From the sequence record ON568341.1: a stretch of DNA of 64,000 nt, one strand, 5' to 3'. Below, piece by piece: positions 26,274 through 63,872 of this stretch. Below the pieces are notes generated by a model. That model ran no database searches. It saw only the letters and a list, made by a program, of their open reading frames with translations, and was not told where the DNA came from. The translations under genes were made by a program, and so were the position numbers. Source of the stretch: Escherichia phage UE-S1. Numbering within the stretch: position 1 is the stretch's first letter; each line of letters starts with the position of its first letter.

Positions 26274-27449
26274 ATGTCACAACTACTAAATGAATCCAAA
26301 TGGGTAGCAGTAAAAGAGAAACTAGTTGAAGGTCTACAGGGTACTCGTAAGTCTGTAATGGAAACTGTTCTTGATAACCATCGTAAAGTTATGCTAACTG
26401 AATCCGCAACTTCTGGTGCAACTACCGCTGGTAATATCGCTACACTAAACAAAGTGATTCTACCAATTATGCGTCGTGTAATGCCAACTGTTATTGCTAA
26501 CGAAATTATCGGTGTTCAGCCTATGACTGGCCCAGTCGGTCAAATTCACACCCTACGTGTACAATATGCTGATAATGCACCTGGTGTTATCGCTGGTGAA
26601 GAAATGCTTTCTCCATACAAAATCGCTAAATCCTACTCTGGTGAACTAAATTCTGATAACAGCAATCCTCAAGCTGCTCCTACTAGCCAACTAGAAGGTA
26701 CTATGGGTCGTCGCGTTAACATCCGTATTCTACGTGAAACAGTTGAAGCGAAATCTCGTCGTCTATCTGCACGTTGGACTGTTGAATCTGCACAAGATGC
26801 TCAATCCCAACATGGTGTTGACGTTGAAGCAGAACTAATGGCTGCAATCGCTCAAGAAGTTACCGTAGAAATCGACCAAGAGCTACTAAGCCGTCTACGT
26901 GCACTACCTGGTGCTGCTGCTGTAACTTATGACCAATCTAAAGTTACTGGTGTTGCAACCTTCGTTGGTGATGAGCACGCTGCTCTAGCAACTCTAATTA
27001 ACCGTCAAGCAAACGAAGTTGCTCGTCGTACTAAGCGTGGTGCTGCAAACTGGGCTGTTGTTTCCCCAACTGCACTAACCATTCTACAATCTGCTACTAC
27101 TTCTAGCTTTGCACGTACCACTGAAGGTACTTTCGAAGCACCAACTAACGTTAAGTTTGTAGGTACTCTAAATAGCACTATGCGTATTTTTGTTGATACT
27201 TATGCAAGTGATTCAGAAGATATTCTAATTGGTTATAAAGGTAATGCAGAAACTGATGCTGGTGTGTTCTATTGCCCATACATCCCACTAATGGCATCCG
27301 GTACTGTAATGGACCCTAACACTGGTGAATTGGTCACAACCTTCCTCACTCGTTATGGTTACGTACAACTCACTGACTCAACCAGTAGCTTGGGTAATGC
27401 TGCGGATTACTACAGCAAAATCGCTATCAAAAACGTTACTTTCATGTAA
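26274..27449 (+). CDS. Major capsid protein, gp23-like (391 aa)
   Basis: Blocks GVQPMTGPVGQIHTLR, IEAKSRRL and GYKGNAETDAGVFYCPYIPL match T4 gp23 as recalled; strong RBS and late promoter. Confidence 0.9.
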   Translation: MSQLLNESKWVAVKEKLVEGLQGTRKSVMETVLDNHRKVMLTESATSGATTAGNIATLNKVILPIMRRVMPTVIANEIIGVQPMTGPVGQIHTLRVQYADNAPGVIAGEEMLSPYKIAKSYSGELNSDNSNPQAAPTSQLEGTMGRRVNIRILRETVEAKSRRLSARWTVESAQDAQSQHGVDVEAELMAAIAQEVTVEIDQELLSRLRALPGAAAVTYDQSKVTGVATFVGDEHAALATLINRQANEVARRTKRGAANWAVVSPTALTILQSATTSSFARTTEGTFEAPTNVKFVGTLNSTMRIFVDTYASDSEDILIGYKGNAETDAGVFYCPYIPLMASGTVMDPNTGELVTTFLTRYGYVQLTDSTSSLGNAADYYSKIAIKNVTFM

Positions 27450-27492: not shown

Positions 27493-27518
27493 AGGGACTC
27501 TTCGGAGTCCCTTTTTTG
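27493..27518 (+). terminator. Rho-independent terminator after capsid gene
   Basis: agggactc-ttcg-gagtccct followed by T6. Confidence 0.75.
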
Positions 27519-27603
27519 GTTTTTATATAACTAAAAGATCTTGACAGTACTTAACAATTGTAGTATCATACGTGTAAATAAAGAAAAGAACTCGGAGAAA
27601 ATC

Positions 27604-29199
27604 GTGTTAGAAGAAATCAAGAAGTTTTTATCAGAGAAAAATGTTCGTGGTGTTAAATCTGCTCTGCAAGCAAAATCTGTATACATTGAATTCCTGCGAG
27701 AGATGTTTGGTGATATCGATCTTAATGAAATGATTTATATGGTATTGAATGATATTACTTCAGTGCCGAATGCTGAATGTGGTGACAAAGCTAAGTTTAT
27801 AAGTATTACCGAAGGATATTCTTACAAGTGCAATAAACCATTTCAAGGAAAAGGAAAATGCCTTATCTGTTGCTCCGCAGTTGCTAGGAAACGTAAAGAA
27901 ACTTACAAAGAAAAAACTGGTTATGATAACCCGGCACAGAATCCAGAAATTCAAAAGAAAATAGGGTATACCAATGAACAACGTTATGGCACTCGTATTG
28001 CTCAACAATCTGAACAAGTAAAGCAGAAATCAATAGAAACTAATATTAAAAAGTATGGTGTTGTTCATCCATCACAGTTGGAAAGTAATAAACAGCAACG
28101 TTTACAAACGGTACAAGAAAAGTATGGTATCAATAATGTATGGCAACTTAATAAAGGTCTTAGTGCACGTTATGAACAGTTTAAAACACGATTTGAACAG
28201 GATGGTAAATTTACTCTTTTAAGTGATGAATCCCATTATGATAATAGCAATGACGCAACTCATGCAATCATGCACTGGAAATGTAATGAATGTGGTAATG
28301 AGTTTGATAAAGTTGCTCTTTGCTTACGCTGCCCTAAGTGTGAACCATATTCATCCAGTACTGAAGAAGTAAATCTTTATAATTACATTACCTCTATCTA
28401 TAGTGGTGTGGTTATTCAAAACAGCCGCAACATCATCAAAGGTAATGAGATTGATATCTTCATCCCAGAATTGAAACTTGGTATTGAGTTCAATGGTGAG
28501 TATTGGCATCGTGATGAAGTTCGTGGTAAAAACTATCATCAATCCAAATACTTCAAAATGAAGGAAGCAGGATACAAACTTATCACTATCTATAGTAATG
28601 AATGGTCAAATAAAACTGAAATTGTTAAGAATCGTTTGAAAAGTTTGATTAGTGTGGATAGTAAAATCTATGCTCGTAAGTGTGAAGTTAGATTGGTTGC
28701 CCATGAAGAATGTGATAAATTTTTGTATGAACATCATATTCAAGGACCATGCCAATCATCAATCAAACTTGGACTTTACTATAATGATGATTTGGTTGCT
28801 TTGATGACATTTGGTGCACCACGATTTAACAAGCAGTATGAATATGAATTACTGCGTTATTGTTCTAAAGGAACAGTTGTTGGGGGTGCATCGAAACTGT
28901 TAAAACATTTTGAACGTATGTATCTTCCTAAATCTCTTCTTTCATACGCCGATATGAACTGGAGTACTGGTAATTTGTATGAAAAAATTGGTTTTACTTT
29001 AGAAGAAGTAACTCAACCTGGTTATTTTTACTATGATAGAAAAAACGAAGTTGTTTATTCTCGCCATCAATGCCAAAAACAAAAACTTATTAAAAAATAT
29101 AATTTTGATAGTTCTATGACAGAGAAGGAAATGACAAAAGAATTAGGATACTTTAGAATCTATGATTGTGGTAACTTAGTTTATAAAAAGATTTACTAA
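27604..29199 (+). CDS. Multidomain homing-endonuclease-like protein, paralog 1 (GTG start; Cys clusters, tandem KYGV repeats, PD-(D/E)XK-like core, conserved C-terminal domain)
   Basis: Start set at GTG 27604 (RBS GGAG) by alignment with paralog at 62121 (VLEEIKKFL vs MIIDELKKFL); repeats …QEKYGINNVWQL…; core IDIFIPELKLGIEFNGEYWH; C-terminal block YELLRYCSKGTVVGGASKLL shared with paralog. Confidence 0.5.
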   Translation: MLEEIKKFLSEKNVRGVKSALQAKSVYIEFLREMFGDIDLNEMIYMVLNDITSVPNAECGDKAKFISITEGYSYKCNKPFQGKGKCLICCSAVARKRKETYKEKTGYDNPAQNPEIQKKIGYTNEQRYGTRIAQQSEQVKQKSIETNIKKYGVVHPSQLESNKQQRLQTVQEKYGINNVWQLNKGLSARYEQFKTRFEQDGKFTLLSDESHYDNSNDATHAIMHWKCNECGNEFDKVALCLRCPKCEPYSSSTEEVNLYNYITSIYSGVVIQNSRNIIKGNEIDIFIPELKLGIEFNGEYWHRDEVRGKNYHQSKYFKMKEAGYKLITIYSNEWSNKTEIVKNRLKSLISVDSKIYARKCEVRLVAHEECDKFLYEHHIQGPCQSSIKLGLYYNDDLVALMTFGAPRFNKQYEYELLRYCSKGTVVGGASKLLKHFERMYLPKSLLSYADMNWSTGNLYEKIGFTLEEVTQPGYFYYDRKNEVVYSRHQCQKQKLIKKYNFDSSMTEKEMTKELGYFRIYDCGNLVYKKIY

Positions 29200-29567: not shown

Positions 29568-29606
29568 TAGATAAATATCTCCATATTAATGATGGAGATT
29601 GAATCT

Positions 29607-29915
29607 ATGTCACAGATATGTTATGTTATAATAAACTCTGCATGGCCTGACTATGTTAAGATTGGTTTCACTTCTAAATCTGAAATGACAGAGCGTTTGA
29701 GAACGTATCAGACAGCTACCCCGTTTCGTGATTTTGAAGTTTATCATGAAGTTCACTTTGAAGACGCACGTTTAGCTGAAAAAGAGATACATAAAAGGCT
29801 TAAACAAATGAATGCAACTAGACAACCAAACACGGAGTGGTTTAAAATGTCTAAAAAAATAGCAGCAAACATCATTGATTCTGTGTGGGATGATATGGAT
29901 AACGACTTGCTATAG
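29607..29915 (+). CDS. GIY-YIG-superfamily / T5orf172-like domain protein
   Basis: Pattern CYVIINSAWPDYVKIGFTSK…RLRTYQTATPFRDFEVYH…EWF typical of T5orf172-type domains; GGAG RBS before ATG 29607 (ORF track start 29589). Confidence 0.45.
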   Translation: MSQICYVIINSAWPDYVKIGFTSKSEMTERLRTYQTATPFRDFEVYHEVHFEDARLAEKEIHKRLKQMNATRQPNTEWFKMSKKIAANIIDSVWDDMDNDLL

Positions 29916-48762: not shown

Positions 48763-48778
48763 TATAAATTAAATAAAA

Positions 48779-48805
48779 GACAGTTTAAATAAAACTGTCT
48801 TTTTT
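48779..48805 (+). terminator. Rho-independent terminator
   Basis: agacagtt-taaata-aactgtct followed by T5. Confidence 0.65.
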
Positions 48806-48821
48806 GTTAGGTAATACGGTT

Positions 48822-49541
48822 ATGGGTGCAAATAATAAAAAGCAAACAACAGAACAATTTATAGAAAAATCAAAATCAATTTATGGTGATATATTCTTAT
48901 ATGATAAAACAGTATATGTGAATGTAAATTCAAAAGTTATTGTAACTTGTAAAATACATGGTGATTATGAGCAATTTGTTAAAGTCCATTACAACGGTGC
49001 TGGATGTACTAAATGTTCAAGACGCTCCAAACATACAACTGAAACCTTCATTGAGGAAGCTAATAAAATACATAATGATAGATATAACTATGATAAAGTT
49101 GTATATGGCAAAAACAACAAGCAAAAACTCACTATAACTTGTAAAATACATGGTGATTTTTTACAAAGAGCAAATGATCATTTATCAGGAAAGGGTTGTA
49201 TTAAATGTGCAATATCTAATAAAATGTCCAAGGCAGTTAAAGACATACGTGACGTTTTGGATATGAAAAATGTATCGTATGAAATGGAAAAAACGTTTGA
49301 TGATTGTAAAAATATACTTCCTTTGAGATTTGATTTTTATCTTCCAACGTTTAATATGTGTATTGAATACGATGGTCTTCAACATTTTGAATCATGTGGT
49401 TGGGGCGGTGAAGAAAAACTAAAACTAACTCAGAAAAATGATAAAATAAAGAATGATTATTGTATTCAAAATAATATTAAATTGTTGAGAATAAAATACG
49501 ATGAAGATCATATTAAAATTGTTCTAGAAAATATATCATAA
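48822..49541 (+). CDS. Homing-endonuclease-like protein: duplicated Cys/His zinc-ribbon-like module plus PD-(D/E)XK/Vsr-like core
   Basis: Two repeats of CKIHGD…GxGCxKC; core LRFDFYLPTFNMCIEYDGLQHFE resembling the cores of the two large HE-like paralogs. Confidence 0.4.
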   Translation: MGANNKKQTTEQFIEKSKSIYGDIFLYDKTVYVNVNSKVIVTCKIHGDYEQFVKVHYNGAGCTKCSRRSKHTTETFIEEANKIHNDRYNYDKVVYGKNNKQKLTITCKIHGDFLQRANDHLSGKGCIKCAISNKMSKAVKDIRDVLDMKNVSYEMEKTFDDCKNILPLRFDFYLPTFNMCIEYDGLQHFESCGWGGEEKLKLTQKNDKIKNDYCIQNNIKLLRIKYDEDHIKIVLENIS

Positions 49542-49581: not shown

Positions 49582-50400
49582 ATGACAAAATTAAATGAAT
49601 TCTTATCAAATATAGCAGTTCTTGATACTGAAACCACTGGTGTTGAAAGTGATGATGATATTATTGAATTTAGTATCTCATATCCATATACTTCACATGA
49701 AAACATTGATACTATTGATAACTATACATTGCGATATAAACCACTGAAAGATATTCCACCAGAAGCATCGGCTGTTCACTTTATCAGTACTGAGGATGTA
49801 GCTAATTGTGTTGGGTATAAAGATGATTTAGATAACATAGATGCACTTATGGGATGCCGTAAGTATTTTGTTGGTCATAATGTACAATTTGACCGTAGAA
49901 TGATGGTAGATAATGAATATAAATATCGTAACTCAGTTTCACAGTACTTACTCGATGAAGATAAATGGATTTGTACTCTTCGTTTGGCTAAGAAAATGTT
50001 TGCAGAAGATACCGAATATAAAAACTTAACTCTAAGTTATTTGTGGTATAAGTTTGGATGCCATCGAGATGTTCACAGACCTATTAATGCTCACGCGGCA
50101 AAAGATGATGTATTCATGTGTTATCAGGTTCTAATCAAATTGGTTGAAATTGCCATCGAACGTGGTCATATTGATTCCAATGGGGATATTGGTGAACAAA
50201 TAGTAGCTTTTTGTAACACCCCAATGCGTTATCAATTCATGCCATTTGGTAAACATAAAGGTGAGCCAATGAATACAGTACCATTGAATTACATTGAATG
50301 GATGATCACTAATAGTGACATTTTAGATGCAAGTAACCCTAACTGTGATAAAGATTTAGTATATACATTTGAGTACGAATATAATACTCGAACTAATTAA
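49582..50400 (+). CDS. DnaQ-like 3'-5' exonuclease (DEDDh; DexA-like)
   Basis: Exo I VLDTETTG, Exo II FVGHNVQFDRRM, Exo III HRPINAHAAKDD. Confidence 0.7.
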   Translation: MTKLNEFLSNIAVLDTETTGVESDDDIIEFSISYPYTSHENIDTIDNYTLRYKPLKDIPPEASAVHFISTEDVANCVGYKDDLDNIDALMGCRKYFVGHNVQFDRRMMVDNEYKYRNSVSQYLLDEDKWICTLRLAKKMFAEDTEYKNLTLSYLWYKFGCHRDVHRPINAHAAKDDVFMCYQVLIKLVEIAIERGHIDSNGDIGEQIVAFCNTPMRYQFMPFGKHKGEPMNTVPLNYIEWMITNSDILDASNPNCDKDLVYTFEYEYNTRTN

Positions 50401-61450: not shown

Positions 61451-62124
61451 ATTACGAATATGATCAACAATCAGTCAATCAGATGGCTGATTTGTTAAGT
61501 GGTCTTAATGATATTGAAGCTGGTGAGACACACAATGCGGCAGGTGTACCATATAAAGCTAGTGGTGATATTGGTGCAATGACCGCTATTTTAACTTCAT
61601 TAAATGAAGCGGGTATGGACTATGGTACTGAACCCGAACCTACACATCCGAACGTAGTGCCATATAACGCACCATTTAACGAACACATGAATGGACAACC
61701 ATATGTTCAGCCTATGGTACATCGTTCACCTCCTAAACCGAAAACCAACTGGAGTTTAGTTGAAGAAAAGGTACAAGGTACGAAATCTACTAAAGTTTAT
61801 AGCATTAAGTGTAACCATAGTTCACAAATTATCATGAATAATATTATGATGTATGAAGCAGCACTTACTTTAGTTAACCTTCTTAACGAAGGGAGAATGT
61901 TGACAGATGCTAAAATTCTTGGTATAATTAGTTCGGGTTTGCAATATACAAATGTTATAAGCGAAGCATTAAAAGCAGCCCATAAACGCCAACGTGTACT
62001 TAATGAATCAAAGTATGATGAAGCAAAAGATTTAGATATAATCATTGCAGAAAAGAAAGCAGAAGCTTATAAATTAAAAGAGCGTGTGTTAAACTTTCTT
62101 AAAAATGAAGGGTATATCACTTGA
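61447..62124 (+). CDS. Hypothetical protein (225 aa)
   Basis: ORF. Confidence 0.4.
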   Translation: MNYEYDQQSVNQMADLLSGLNDIEAGETHNAAGVPYKASGDIGAMTAILTSLNEAGMDYGTEPEPTHPNVVPYNAPFNEHMNGQPYVQPMVHRSPPKPKTNWSLVEEKVQGTKSTKVYSIKCNHSSQIIMNNIMMYEAALTLVNLLNEGRMLTDAKILGIISSGLQYTNVISEALKAAHKRQRVLNESKYDEAKDLDIIIAEKKAEAYKLKERVLNFLKNEGYIT

Positions 62125-63872
62125 TTATAGATGAATTGAAGAAATTCTTAAAAAGCAAAAACAAAAAAACATGGGTTAAGTTGGTAAACAATAATGAAGT
62201 ATATTTTAAATATGTTCGTGAATTGTTCCCAACTAAACCCATGAATGAAGCATTATATCTTATAATGAACGATATGGTATGTGCACCATCTGCCCCATGT
62301 GGTTCTGAATGTAAATTTATTAATGGTTCATATGATAAGTATTGTTCTAAACCAACAAAACCAAACAAAAATCGTGATAATGGTTTTTGTGTAGTATGTA
62401 ATGAACATTGGAAGAACACCAAACTCAAAACTACTAAACAAAAATGCATTGATACTTATGGAGTCGAATACCATTGGCAAAGAAATGATGTAAAGGACAA
62501 AATAAAAAGTACTAATATGAAACGATATGGTGTTGAACACAATTCACATATCGAACATGTTCTTGAAAAACGAAAGGAAACTTTCATTAAAAGATATGGT
62601 GTTGAATCACCTTTGGCATCTGTTGAAATTCGTGATAAGATAAAAGCAACAAACATTGAAAAATATGGTGTTGAAAATTATGGAAGTACTGATGAATGTA
62701 TAGAAAAACGAAATAAAACAATGATGGATTTGTATGGTGTTAATAATGCACAACATGTAACGAAATTTTTAAATGAATCAAAGGTTACGAAAGCTAAAAT
62801 TAGGTATGATAAAATTTTATCTATTATTAACCCTTCATATAAAGAACTTTTTGAATATGATGACTTAATTGATTCTACTAATGAAAGTAAACTTCCGTAT
62901 TATTGTGAAATACACAAAGGGTTGTTTTATAGTAATTATAAATATGGTATAGTTTGTAGTGTTTGTAATCCACCCGTGTATAGTTCCATACAAAATGAAA
63001 TAAAGAATTTTGTGTCAACATTGACTGAATGTGACATTATTATGAATGATCGAAGTAATGGGTATGAATATGATATATACATCCCTGAACTTCAGATAGC
63101 AATAGAAGTTAATGGTATGTATTGGCACAAAAGTGATATGGTTGATAAGTATTATCATAGGGCAAAAACAATAAATTCAATCGAACGTGGTATTAGATTG
63201 ATACATATATTTGAAGATGAATGGTACAGTAAACAGAAAATTATTAAAAATAGATTAATGAACGTTTTTCAATGTTCTAGTAAGATTTATGCCAGAAAAT
63301 GTATTGTTAAAAAAATCAATACAAATATTTGTTATGATTTCCTAAACACTAATCATATACAAGGATATACTAGAACTGGAATAAACTATGGTTTGTTTTA
63401 TAAACAAGAACTGGTTGCAGTAATGACGTTCAGTAAAAGTCGATATGATAAAAAATTTGAATATGAGCTAATACGATACTGCTCACGTGGAACTGTTGTT
63501 GGTGGTGCTGGTAAATTATTGTCTGCATTTGAGCGTGATTACAAACCATTGTCGTTGATGAGCTACGCAGACTTGAATTGGGGTTCTGGACAGTTATACA
63601 TATCTCTTAACTTTGAAAATTTAGGATATACAGAACCAAAATATTTTTATTATGATCCAAAAACAAAACAGCGTTTTTCTAGACAAAAATTTAGAAAACA
63701 TAAATTGATTGAAATGGGATACAACTCATCTAAAACCGAAGAAGAGATATGCTTGGGTGAAATTGGATTGTATAAAATATACGATTCTGGCAATTGTAAA
63801 TTTGCTAAATATTATTACAACATAAACATTACAGGAGATATTGAAAAATGTCCAAATCGTACAAAAAACTAA
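62121..63872 (+). CDS. Multidomain homing-endonuclease-like protein, paralog 2 (TTG start)
   Basis: Same architecture as 27604-29199: KYGV repeats (…KRYGVEHNSHIEHV…KRYGVESPLASVEIR…EKYGVENYGSTDE…), core YDIYIPELQIAIEVNGMYWH, C-terminal YELIRYCSRGTVVGGAGKLL; only in-frame start near the N-terminus is TTG 62121. Confidence 0.5.
   Translation: MIIDELKKFLKSKNKKTWVKLVNNNEVYFKYVRELFPTKPMNEALYLIMNDMVCAPSAPCGSECKFINGSYDKYCSKPTKPNKNRDNGFCVVCNEHWKNTKLKTTKQKCIDTYGVEYHWQRNDVKDKIKSTNMKRYGVEHNSHIEHVLEKRKETFIKRYGVESPLASVEIRDKIKATNIEKYGVENYGSTDECIEKRNKTMMDLYGVNNAQHVTKFLNESKVTKAKIRYDKILSIINPSYKELFEYDDLIDSTNESKLPYYCEIHKGLFYSNYKYGIVCSVCNPPVYSSIQNEIKNFVSTLTECDIIMNDRSNGYEYDIYIPELQIAIEVNGMYWHKSDMVDKYYHRAKTINSIERGIRLIHIFEDEWYSKQKIIKNRLMNVFQCSSKIYARKCIVKKINTNICYDFLNTNHIQGYTRTGINYGLFYKQELVAVMTFSKSRYDKKFEYELIRYCSRGTVVGGAGKLLSAFERDYKPLSLMSYADLNWGSGQLYISLNFENLGYTEPKYFYYDPKTKQRFSRQKFRKHKLIEMGYNSSKTEEEICLGEIGLYKIYDSGNCKFAKYYYNINITGDIEKCPNRTKN

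Follow-up and report, generated by a model that had tools for sequence, protein, structure and literature searches.

The stretch of DNA analysed here, 64,000 nucleotides of Escherichia phage UE-S1 (ON568341.1; hereafter the window), belongs to an Asteriusvirus genome, a PBECO4/121Q-like jumbo coliphage, and contains three genes which an initial annotation had described as homing-endonuclease-like (Table 1). The two large genes, HEG-A and HEG-C, are paralogs as had been proposed, with 37% identity over 544 aligned residues (E 7e-105), and no further paralogs were found within the window by tblastn. The short gene, HEG-B, has only a zinc ribbon and a nuclease core in common with them. It is too diverged to show BLAST-level similarity to HEG-A or HEG-C, and it is on the profile of the large-protein family that its zinc ribbon and nuclease core align (hhalign 94.5%, E 7.9e-8); it also matches PHROG 559 (E 2e-59). 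HEG-B consists of two zinc-ribbon/treble-clef modules (aa 11-140) and the nuclease core (aa 141-239), without 23-aa repeats and without a Mom domain. The duplicated zinc-ribbon-like module seen earlier is confirmed, with a length of about 64 aa and the spacing C-x2-H...C-x2-C. The gene had also been placed after uvsX, which is right in so far as it lies one gene downstream of uvsX; the gene that it directly follows is uvsY.

Table 1. Positions of the three genes, their domains and neighbouring signals in the window.
Feature	Position	Strand	Remarks
Capsid gene 3' end, codons 351-378	27324..27407	+	silent-substitution cluster relative to HEG-less PBECO4
Terminator-like hairpin	27493..27512	+	3' of capsid gene; left edge of HEG-A insertion
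Sigma-70-like promoter (putative)	27541..27569	+	TTGACA, 17 nt, TATCAT; 11/12 matches
Shine-Dalgarno GGAG	27594..27597	+	6 nt upstream of GTG 27604
HEG-A	27604..29199	+	531-aa Hef-type endonuclease, GTG start
HEG-A four-helix module (aa 1-50) and Cys knuckle (aa 51-92)	27604..27879	+	predicted secondary structure
HEG-A 23-aa basic helical repeats ('KYGV')	27880..28203	+	Pfam DUF7487, PF24308, E 1.8e-12
HEG-A linker and Cys4 zinc ribbon (C227, C230, C243, C246)	28204..28353	+	
HEG-A Vsr-like (EDxHD-type) nuclease domain	28354..28653	+	3R3P profile match; weak PF18741 match
HEG-A Mom-like GNAT domain	28654..29196	+	two-helix insertion before last strands
Hairpin between uvsY and HEG-B	48775..48803		placed on minus strand by terminator scan
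HEG-B	48822..49541	+	239 aa, ATG start, short relative
HEG-C	62121..63872	+	583-aa Hef-type endonuclease; TTG 62121 or ATT 62124 start
HEG-C five 23-aa repeats	62415..62795	+	DUF7487, E 2.9e-19
HEG-C Vsr-like nuclease domain	62991..63275	+	catalytic pattern intact
HEG-C Mom-like GNAT domain	63276..63815	+	S124 equivalent Gly, R151 equivalent Asn
HEG-C C-terminal tail	63816..63872	+	bears Shine-Dalgarno AGGAGA of downstream gene

The mechanical open reading frame of HEG-A spans 27541-29199 (552 aa). Gene callers begin it at GTG 27604, giving 531 aa (database protein P0001, 100% identical), and the ortholog in ph0011 has ATG at the homologous codon, so the start is taken to be 27604 and not 27541. 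TTG 27541 was rejected as a start, being the TTGACA -35 box of a promoter-like site. In the ph0011 ortholog of HEG-C an ATG stands one codon after TTG 62121, where the window reads ATT (62124). The non-ATG starts suggested for both large genes are therefore supported, as their ph0011 orthologs start with ATG there. TTG 62121 overlaps the upstream stop (TTGA), a coupling arrangement, and at its other end HEG-C overlaps the ATG of the downstream gene (63848) by 25 nt. The terminator-like hairpin beyond the capsid gene is also found in PBECO4 and ph0011. The promoter-like site is not present in PBECO4 at the same position, and is a putative promoter of the HEG-A cassette, identified purely by its match to the consensus.

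The architecture of HEG-A was read from an AlphaFold2 model (mean pLDDT 95), in which a helical N-terminus is followed by a Cys knuckle, helical repeats, a Cys4 zinc ribbon, the nuclease and a C-terminal alpha/beta domain. C59, C76 and C86 of the knuckle are conserved, and no analogue of the N-terminal module was found in the PDB. The repeats have a period of exactly 23 aa in both HEG-A and HEG-C, where about 30 aa had been estimated, and the supposed three to four units per protein are replaced by three clear units and one degenerate unit in HEG-A and by five in HEG-C. The repeat region of HEG-A has a pI of 9.8. These repeats are predicted to form a DNA-binding array, which has no solved structural analogue. 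Among homologs the number of units varies from 1 to 11, and for this reason the array may be a modular DNA-recognition device, making it worth structural study.

In the nuclease domain, residues E282, D284, E295, N297, H302, H312 and K315 are all there in HEG-A, and the conserved residues are equally complete in HEG-C. A family profile of 119 homologs matches the catalytic domain of I-Bth0305I (PDB 3R3P) with an E value of 1e-7, which bears out the Vsr-like PD-(D/E)XK core recognised in the initial annotation. I-Bth0305I is the prototype Vsr-like 'EDxHD' homing endonuclease, and Hef-type enzymes were put in this lineage in 2011 by the authors of the I-Bth0305I family (PMC3239194). Its D196, N208 and H213 align with D284, N297 and H302 of HEG-A; in the composite motif E, D, x, H, D the N-terminal Glu maps with low confidence, and the final Asp (D222) aligns with H312, a His which is invariant in the 119-homolog family. 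Unlike HEG-A and HEG-C, I-Bth0305I is intron-encoded and has NUMOD-type DNA-binding motifs and no Mom domain. The divergent PD-(D/E)XK fold and the His general base are also shared with E. coli Vsr (very-short-patch repair) and the DUF559/MTES_1575 nucleases, but these are repair or stand-alone nucleases without a repeat array or Mom domain.

The C-terminal domain of the window proteins has no Pfam or NCBIfam match, and a search of PDB sequences with the single sequence yielded a chance match only; it was identified through homologs, profile-profile comparison and fold search only. The best PDB fold is that of phage Mu Mom (8BV8; Foldseek, E 3.3e-6, target-normalised TM 0.53-0.55), with GNAT acetyltransferases next, in keeping with the GNAT-like C-terminus suggested earlier. 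The structural match between the HEG-A domain and Mu Mom has 13-14% identity. The lone Mu Mom sequence gives a weak match to the family profile (probability 2%, E 0.022), with the alignment shifted around H58; when a 46-sequence alignment of the Mom family took its place, the match reached hhalign 86% (E 4.8e-6). Pfam Mom (PF25680) has no match in HEG-A or HEG-C, even at E values up to 1. A Pfam scan of a 65-sequence homolog set found Mom at E up to 0.01 in 27 of 63 full-length homologs, and some of these exceed the family cut-off (e.g. P0075, 30.1 against 27.1 bits). HEG-A and HEG-C fall below the family threshold and are therefore regarded as distant Mom relatives, not as members of PF25680. 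From the profile comparison and the predicted structure, their C-terminal block is related to Mom and has a predicted GNAT fold. Searched alone, this domain matched 16,927 cluster representatives.

Mu Mom is a Gly-tRNA-dependent adenine N6-carbamoylmethylase, shown in 2026 to move glycine from charged tRNA to DNA adenine (PMC13219725). It is a stand-alone, dimeric enzyme of 241 aa, whereas in HEG-A and HEG-C the domain forms the C-terminus of a nuclease. The GNAT fold of Mom, like that of HEG-A, has inserted helices ahead of the final strands, and for the two-helix insertion of Mom a contact with the major groove of DNA has been proposed (8BV8; PMC13219725). In the AlphaFold2 model of HEG-A, strands are separated by helices 492-499 and 507-514, which would correspond to the insertion at 175-209 of Mom. 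At the positions of six key Mom residues (H58, R111, S124, D149, R151 and Y159), HEG-A has H, R, S, D, N and Y (5/6), and HEG-C has H, R, G, D, N and Y (4/6); Y59 of Mom is replaced by Ile or Leu. Neither protein has the full active-residue set, as both have Asn in place of R151 and HEG-C has in addition lost the Ser of S124, which speaks against canonical Mom chemistry in HEG-A and HEG-C. Across the 119 homologs R358, H378, R418 and Y459 (HEG-A numbering) are invariant, the D149 equivalent is Asp in 100, the S124 equivalent is Ser in 94 and Gly in 24, and the R151 equivalent is Arg in 64. The sequence G427-G428-A429, which we take to be the G-x-A signature of the GNAT cofactor loop, is conserved. 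The Mom-like GNAT domain is under strong constraint.

HEG-A matches PHROG 3339 ('homing endonuclease') at E 3.7e-132, with residues 16-551 of the 552-aa open reading frame aligned to positions 11-534 of 536, and HEG-C matches it over its full length (E 1.6e-133). Homologs in RaK2, K64-1, PA5oct, CP220 and SG1 are annotated as 'Hef-like homing endonuclease'. In Tequatrovirus F26, the 522-aa protein F26_0224, encoded between nrdA and nrdB, is built in the same way from repeats, zinc ribbon, nuclease and Mom-like domain, and aligns with 31% identity over 520 residues (E 1e-47), Mom-like block included. The nrdA-nrdB interval is the locus of hef in the T4-like phage U5, and nrdB is reported to be cut by Hef (Sandegren et al., 2005, as cited in PMC2988022 and PMC3296691; PMC2988022); within the group, activity is known from U5 Hef only. 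On this sequence evidence HEG-A and HEG-C belong to the already named Hef-like family, with the link to U5 Hef made by position, architecture and annotation. Like other members of the Hef-like group (U5 Hef and those of T4-like, ViI-like, Campylobacter and jumbo phages), the HEGs are free-standing between conserved genes, and the group often has several copies per genome. They differ from Hef in insertion site, HEG-A lying after the capsid gene and HEG-C after the replication block of Asteriusvirus, and in the number of 23-aa repeats.

Fusions of Mom to REase-fold nucleases in jumbo phages have also been described from another direction, and were read as restriction-modification-like weapons; five 'momylating enzymes' were attributed to PA5oct (Iyer et al., 2021; PMC7824862). 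HEG-A has five matches in PA5oct, and these fusions are almost certainly the same proteins as the HEG-A type. Iyer et al. (2021) draw no connection to Hef or homing, and among the papers searched, none of those joining Mom, GNAT and 'homing endonuclease' deals with these phage proteins. The same proteins are thus treated in two literatures without cross-reference, as Hef-like homing endonucleases in phage biology and as Mom-nuclease fusions in comparative genomics. The family is not new, and its domain combination, which the initial annotation had not recognised as a described one, has been described before: it is that of the Hef-like family, whose enzymes were assigned to the Vsr-like lineage in 2011 (PMC3239194), and Mom/REase fusions have been known from 2021 (PMC7824862). 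For genome annotation, the HEGs are unremarkable representatives of a very large family, and the family matched is one of nucleases, not a well-characterised non-nuclease family.

Among 32 records covering at least 80% of a 20-kb query, HEG-A is present in ph0011 only, and at this site in PBECO4 the capsid gene runs directly to the next gene. HEG-C is likewise present in ph0011 only, all other matches ending at window position 62117, and HEG-B is present in TH47 only, with PBECO4 and most relatives lacking it. The HEG-less phages are 90-96% identical across the regions of the three genes, which sit precisely between conserved genes. The three HEGs are sporadically inserted and probably selfish nuclease genes. 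They are polymorphic and not fixed in relatives, and this presence/absence polymorphism at 3/3 sites, together with the full-length PHROG 3339 matches and the Hef-like annotations, upholds their original description as homing-endonuclease-like.

Upstream of HEG-A, 21 of the 28 capsid codons 351-378 have silent differences from PBECO4 and none has a non-silent one; codons 157-299 show no differences at all. In the final 300 bp ahead of HEG-A, identity to PBECO4 drops from 1.00 to 0.81; in the 750 bp right after it, identity is 0.98-1.00. This cluster is a candidate co-conversion tract or recoded target region. No co-conversion signal is visible in the flanks of HEG-C, and those of HEG-B have a mild identity dip in the downstream exonuclease gene only. 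The HEG-A protein of ph0011 is 66% identical, against 93-100% for the DNA of the upstream capsid gene, and therefore the shared site may reflect old or repeated invasion and not recent homing. The dN/dS of HEG-C relative to its ph0011 ortholog is 0.12, indicating that the genes are functional.

Together, these observations make it probable that HEG-A, HEG-B and HEG-C are free-standing Hef-type homing endonuclease genes of Asteriusvirus. The N-terminal module, the basic 23-aa repeat array and the zinc ribbon would bind a long DNA site, and the Vsr-like domain would cut near its own insertion point in a co-infecting relative lacking the gene, as family membership and the published activity of U5 Hef suggest. 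UvsX and UvsY of the phage could then mend the cut with the HEG-carrying genome as template, so that the gene is copied along with its flanks; the tract of silent substitutions in the capsid gene fits this step. Expression may be held at a low level, as is commonly seen with genes of this type, by weak initiation at GTG and TTG and, for HEG-A, by the separate promoter. The role of the Mom-like domain is the least certain step; most likely it would act on DNA adenine in or close to the target site of the enzyme. The domain could mark the carrier genome chemically and so spare it or, where catalytic residues have been lost (HEG-C), serve as a base-flipping DNA-binding module. Against this explanation stand the little or no co-conversion signal at the HEG-C and HEG-B flanks, the 66% identity of the HEG-A protein in ph0011 beside a capsid gene at 93-100%, and the His in place of Asp at the fifth EDxHD position.

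The Mom-like domain may also be non-enzymatic throughout, a former modification domain kept for DNA binding or adenine flipping which aids target recognition or positioning, and we regard this as a serious possibility, though not as the likelier one. The substitutions R151A and S124A each abolish the activity of Mu Mom (PMC13219725), and these are the positions that have become Asn in HEG-A and HEG-C and Gly in HEG-C, respectively. Family-wide, they are Arg in just 64/119 and Gly in 24/119, and the two-helix insertion with its proposed major-groove contact is retained in the AlphaFold2 model. Against this, proteins of 35-40% identity show no variation at the equivalents of H58, R111 and Y159 and have a nearly constant D149 equivalent, a degree of conservation beyond what a pure binding role would usually require. 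Conservation of the presumed GNAT cofactor loop points the same way, and the residue needs of Mu Mom may not carry over to a branch as distant as 13-14% identity.

A more speculative extension of homing, which we think rather unlikely, is that Hef-type enzymes are self-immunising elements: an adenine within the long recognition site of the enzyme in the carrier genome would receive an acyl or aminoacyl-derived mark from the Mom-like domain, leaving the nuclease to cut unmarked, HEG-less rivals only. If true, gene drive would here follow a site-specific 'restriction-modification' logic within one polypeptide, and the new tRNA-dependent DNA modification chemistry would have a second biological use. 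Since the chemistry of Mu Mom was shown in 2026, the job of a Mom-like domain on a mobile nuclease is a concrete, testable question, and the window offers natural material for it in two diverged copies differing in key Mom residues, the Mom-less HEG-B and sequenced sister phages with empty sites.

The weapon proposed by Iyer et al. (2021), in which the Mom domain would modify adenines throughout the phage genome and so protect it, and the fused nuclease would degrade unmodified host or superinfecting DNA, is an unlikely explanation of the HEGs. It accords with the conservation of most key Mom residues (H, R and Y invariant, D in 100/119, S in 94/119), and with the multiple copies common in single genomes, such as the five places in PA5oct. 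For each HEG, however, there are phages of 90-96% identity in these regions that lack it, so that basic phage defence does not depend on any of them. The insertions are precise and intergenic, one with a flanking silent-substitution tract, and the long, variable array (1-11 repeats) suggests long, rare sites and not the frequent sites of restriction. The R151 equivalent is lost in HEG-A and HEG-C and the S124 equivalent in HEG-C, and HEG-B has no Mom domain at all. Homing and use as a weapon are not mutually exclusive.

Very improbable is that the HEGs are decaying or domesticated remnants which have lost good start codons and endonuclease action: the ATG codons of ph0011 are indeed ATT in HEG-C and GTG in HEG-A, but the frames are intact (531 and 583 codons), the nuclease residues are complete, GTG 27604 follows a well-spaced Shine-Dalgarno sequence and TTG 62121 is in a coupling arrangement. 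A pseudogene reading was rejected on the intact frames and the dN/dS of 0.12 for HEG-C.

The best-supported reading of HEG-A, HEG-B and HEG-C, as far as sequence can speak, is that they are free-standing Hef-type homing endonuclease genes, on the basis of family membership, intact catalytic residues, polymorphic and precise insertions, purifying selection and a flanking tract of silent substitutions. All three ORFs named in the initial annotation were found on the plus strand, with small corrections. The two large genes, HEG-A and HEG-C, are indeed paralogs, sharing 37% of 544 aligned residues (E 7e-105). The match to PHROG 3339, 'homing endonuclease', covers the entire length of both (E about 1e-132), and tblastn found homologs in 423 phage records, many of them labelled 'Hef-like homing endonuclease', which bears out the homing-endonuclease-like nature proposed for them. 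BLAST gave no link between the shorter HEG-B and either large gene; its alignment to the profile of the 119-member family (hhalign probability 94.5%, E 7.9e-8) spans the zinc ribbon and nuclease core. No further copies were detected within the 64-kb window by tblastn.

Positions of the three genes and of signals near HEG-A
Feature	Position	Strand	Details
HEG-A	27541-29199	+	mechanical ORF; ORF scan
HEG-B	48804-49541	+	ATG at 48822; ORF scan
HEG-C	62121-63872	+	583 aa; ORF scan
Capsid-gene terminator hairpin	27493-27512		HEG-A cassette begins just 3' of hairpin
Sigma-70-like promoter match	from 27541		TTGACA, 17 nt, TATCAT; 11/12 positions

The full domain combination had been thought undescribed, but HEG-A and HEG-C belong to an already known family, and Tequatrovirus F26 encodes a 522-aa protein of the same architecture, Mom-like block included, between nrdA and nrdB. 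Tables of Hef-like genes exist for T4-related and LIMEstone phages, and hef of phage U5 is described at nrdA-nrdB, with nrdB reported as the cleaved gene (PMC2988022). In F26 (L007 1-6234) nrdA and nrdB are each annotated as two pieces with HNH endonuclease genes between; this ribonucleotide reductase region is a dense cluster of mobile nuclease genes, with the Hef-architecture gene between nrdA and nrdB. Iyer et al. (2021, PMC7824862) had noted fusions of Mom to REase-fold nucleases in jumbo phages and credit PA5oct with five 'momylating enzymes'; HEG-A as a query matched five places in PA5oct.

The window derives from an Asteriusvirus, a jumbo coliphage of the PBECO4/121Q group, and its nucleotide identity to many Asteriusvirus genomes is about 92% around HEG-A, 96% around HEG-B and 90% around HEG-C. 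Insertion sites were compared with those of relatives, a comparison set as a test in the initial annotation, and all three genes are polymorphic within the group. Among 32 records covering at least 80% of a 20-kb query, the HEG-A site is occupied in ph0011 only, by a gene whose product shares just 66% identity with HEG-A; PBECO4 has no gene between the major capsid gene and the 116-aa gene which lies downstream of HEG-A in the window. HEG-C is present in ph0011 only, with all other genome matches ending at 62117, four bases before the gene, and the empty PBECO4 site has 32 bp between gp478 and gp477. HEG-B was found in TH47 only, among the relatives compared; PBECO4 has uvsY and then a DnaQ-like exonuclease gene, with 47 bp between. 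A T5orf172/GIY-YIG-like gene of 108 aa (29589-29915, plus strand), two genes downstream of HEG-A, is kept in PBECO4 ('GIY-YIG nuclease family protein') and ph0011, and so shows no polymorphism among the phages compared. In ph0011 the CDS of the UvsW-like helicase (L008 4157-6736) spans 2580 nt, against 1407 nt in PBECO4 (L006 4224-5630), a difference suggestive of about 1.2 kb gained by insertion or fusion in ph0011.

The junctions are precise. About 50 bp of spacer gave way to the HEG-A cassette, which stops short of the ribosome-binding site of the next gene. HEG-C overlaps the stop codon of the preceding gene at its 5' end, and at its 3' end runs 25 nt into the downstream gene (ATG 63848), whose Shine-Dalgarno AGGAGA sits within the HEG-C tail (63816-63872); the native translation signals of that downstream gene have therefore been replaced by the insertion. 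Capsid codons 157-299 are identical to those of PBECO4, while 21 of the 28 codons at 351-378 differ, all synonymously. Identity to PBECO4 drops from 1.00 to 0.81 in the last 300 bp before the HEG-A insertion, and is 0.98-1.00 in the 750 bp directly after it. Such a tract is the pattern expected from co-conversion by a diverged donor, although recoding of the target site would give the same pattern. It provides good indirect evidence for homing-type transfer at HEG-A, whose target is probably in the 3' end of the capsid gene. No co-conversion signal was seen in identity to PBECO4 at the HEG-C flanks, and around HEG-B there is just a slight dip, in the gene that follows it. Most 100-bp bins of this exonuclease gene (49600-50300) have 88-93% identity to PBECO4 and one has 99%, against mostly 93-100% in surrounding DNA; the dip may be a weak trace of co-conversion.

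The GTG start proposed for HEG-A (27604) stands, as it has GGAG upstream with a 6-nt spacer, is the start of an identical database protein (P0001, 531 aa) and corresponds to the ATG start codon in the ph0011 ortholog. The TTG opening the mechanical ORF was rejected, as it begins the TTGACA of the promoter match. For HEG-C, the ATG of the ph0011 ortholog corresponds to ATT 62124, and the codon before it, TTG 62121, shares bases with the stop of the preceding gene (TTGA). Whichever of the two is used, that TTG or, by the ph0011 alignment, the ATT, initiation is non-ATG, as had been proposed. HEG-C is not decaying, judging by a dN/dS of 0.12 against the ph0011 ortholog. The ATG start of HEG-B lies directly downstream of a hairpin, and a terminator-like site comes after the gene.

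In an AlphaFold2 model of HEG-A (119 homologs as input, mean pLDDT 95), four N-terminal helices precede a Cys knuckle formed by a beta-hairpin; then come long helices, one for each repeat, a Cys4 ribbon, the nuclease domain and a C-terminal domain, the last two of alpha/beta type. No mention of the repeat, DUF7487, was found in the literature search. The Vsr-like core was recovered by matching the family profile to the catalytic domain of I-Bth0305I (PDB 3R3P, E 1e-7), prototype of the 'EDxHD' homing endonucleases, to which its authors had already added 'bacteriophage Hef type homing endonucleases' (PMC3239194). D196, N208 and H213 of I-Bth0305I align with D284, N297 and H302 of HEG-A, whereas its last motif residue, D222, lines up with an invariant His (H312). 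In the 119-sequence alignment E282, D284, E295, G298, H302, H312 and K315 show little or no variation, and HEG-A and HEG-C have every one of them. Homing would involve DNA recognition by the repeat array, cleavage close to the empty site and repair of the break by the phage recombination system.

The C-terminal block of the window proteins has no direct Pfam or NCBIfam match. Of 63 homologs, 27 match Pfam PF25680 (Mom family) with E-values of 0.01 or lower, and some of these exceed the curated threshold. Among solved structures, the model matches the DNA-modifying enzyme Mom of phage Mu best (8BV8, E 3.3e-6), with many GNAT acetyltransferases next, in line with the GNAT-like fold first suggested, and comparison with a profile of 46 Mom proteins gave E 4.8e-6 over 121 columns. 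From homolog matches, model fold and profile comparison, we identify the block as a Mom-like GNAT domain. The aligned HEG-A/Mom pairs are H378/H58, R418/R111, S430/S124, D450/D149, N452/R151 and Y459/Y159. In Mu Mom, by a structure-function study from 2026, R111, S124 and R151 are essential, H58, Y59 and Y159 are important, and a helix-turn-helix-like insertion is also required (PMC13219725); the HEG-A model has a two-helix insertion at the corresponding place. With Asn at the R151 position in both, and Gly for S124 in HEG-C too, five of the six residues remain in HEG-A and four in HEG-C. Across the family H, R and Y never vary, D occurs in 100 of 119 sequences, the S124 position is S in 94 and Gly in 24, and the R151 position is Arg in only 64. 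Together with the profile and fold matches, this conservation argues that the domain is a distant, strongly constrained relative of Mom.

The conserved Mom residues fit the main rival, a restriction-modification-like reading of these proteins (Iyer et al.), which accords poorly with the patchy occurrence of the genes among near-identical phages, with a recognition array that is long and variable, and with the loss of the R151 equivalent in HEG-A and HEG-C. Homing and this rival are compatible; combined, they would have the Mom-like domain mark the target site of the carrier itself. A serious alternative is that the domain is non-catalytic and DNA-binding in both large proteins, especially HEG-C. 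The literature search found no paper tying a Mom domain to Hef or homing, and none of the papers combining Mom, GNAT and 'homing endonuclease' concerned these phage proteins; the HEG locus and its sister phages are good material for probing the role of a Mom-like domain in a mobile nuclease. With the domain alone as query, 16,927 cluster representatives were retrieved, most carrying it at the C-terminus of 450-700-aa proteins and a few as a stand-alone protein. Some proteins of about 215 aa consist of it alone, and one of 1039 aa carries it twice (P0241, P0286, P0334, P0363), so it is a movable module with no single architecture.
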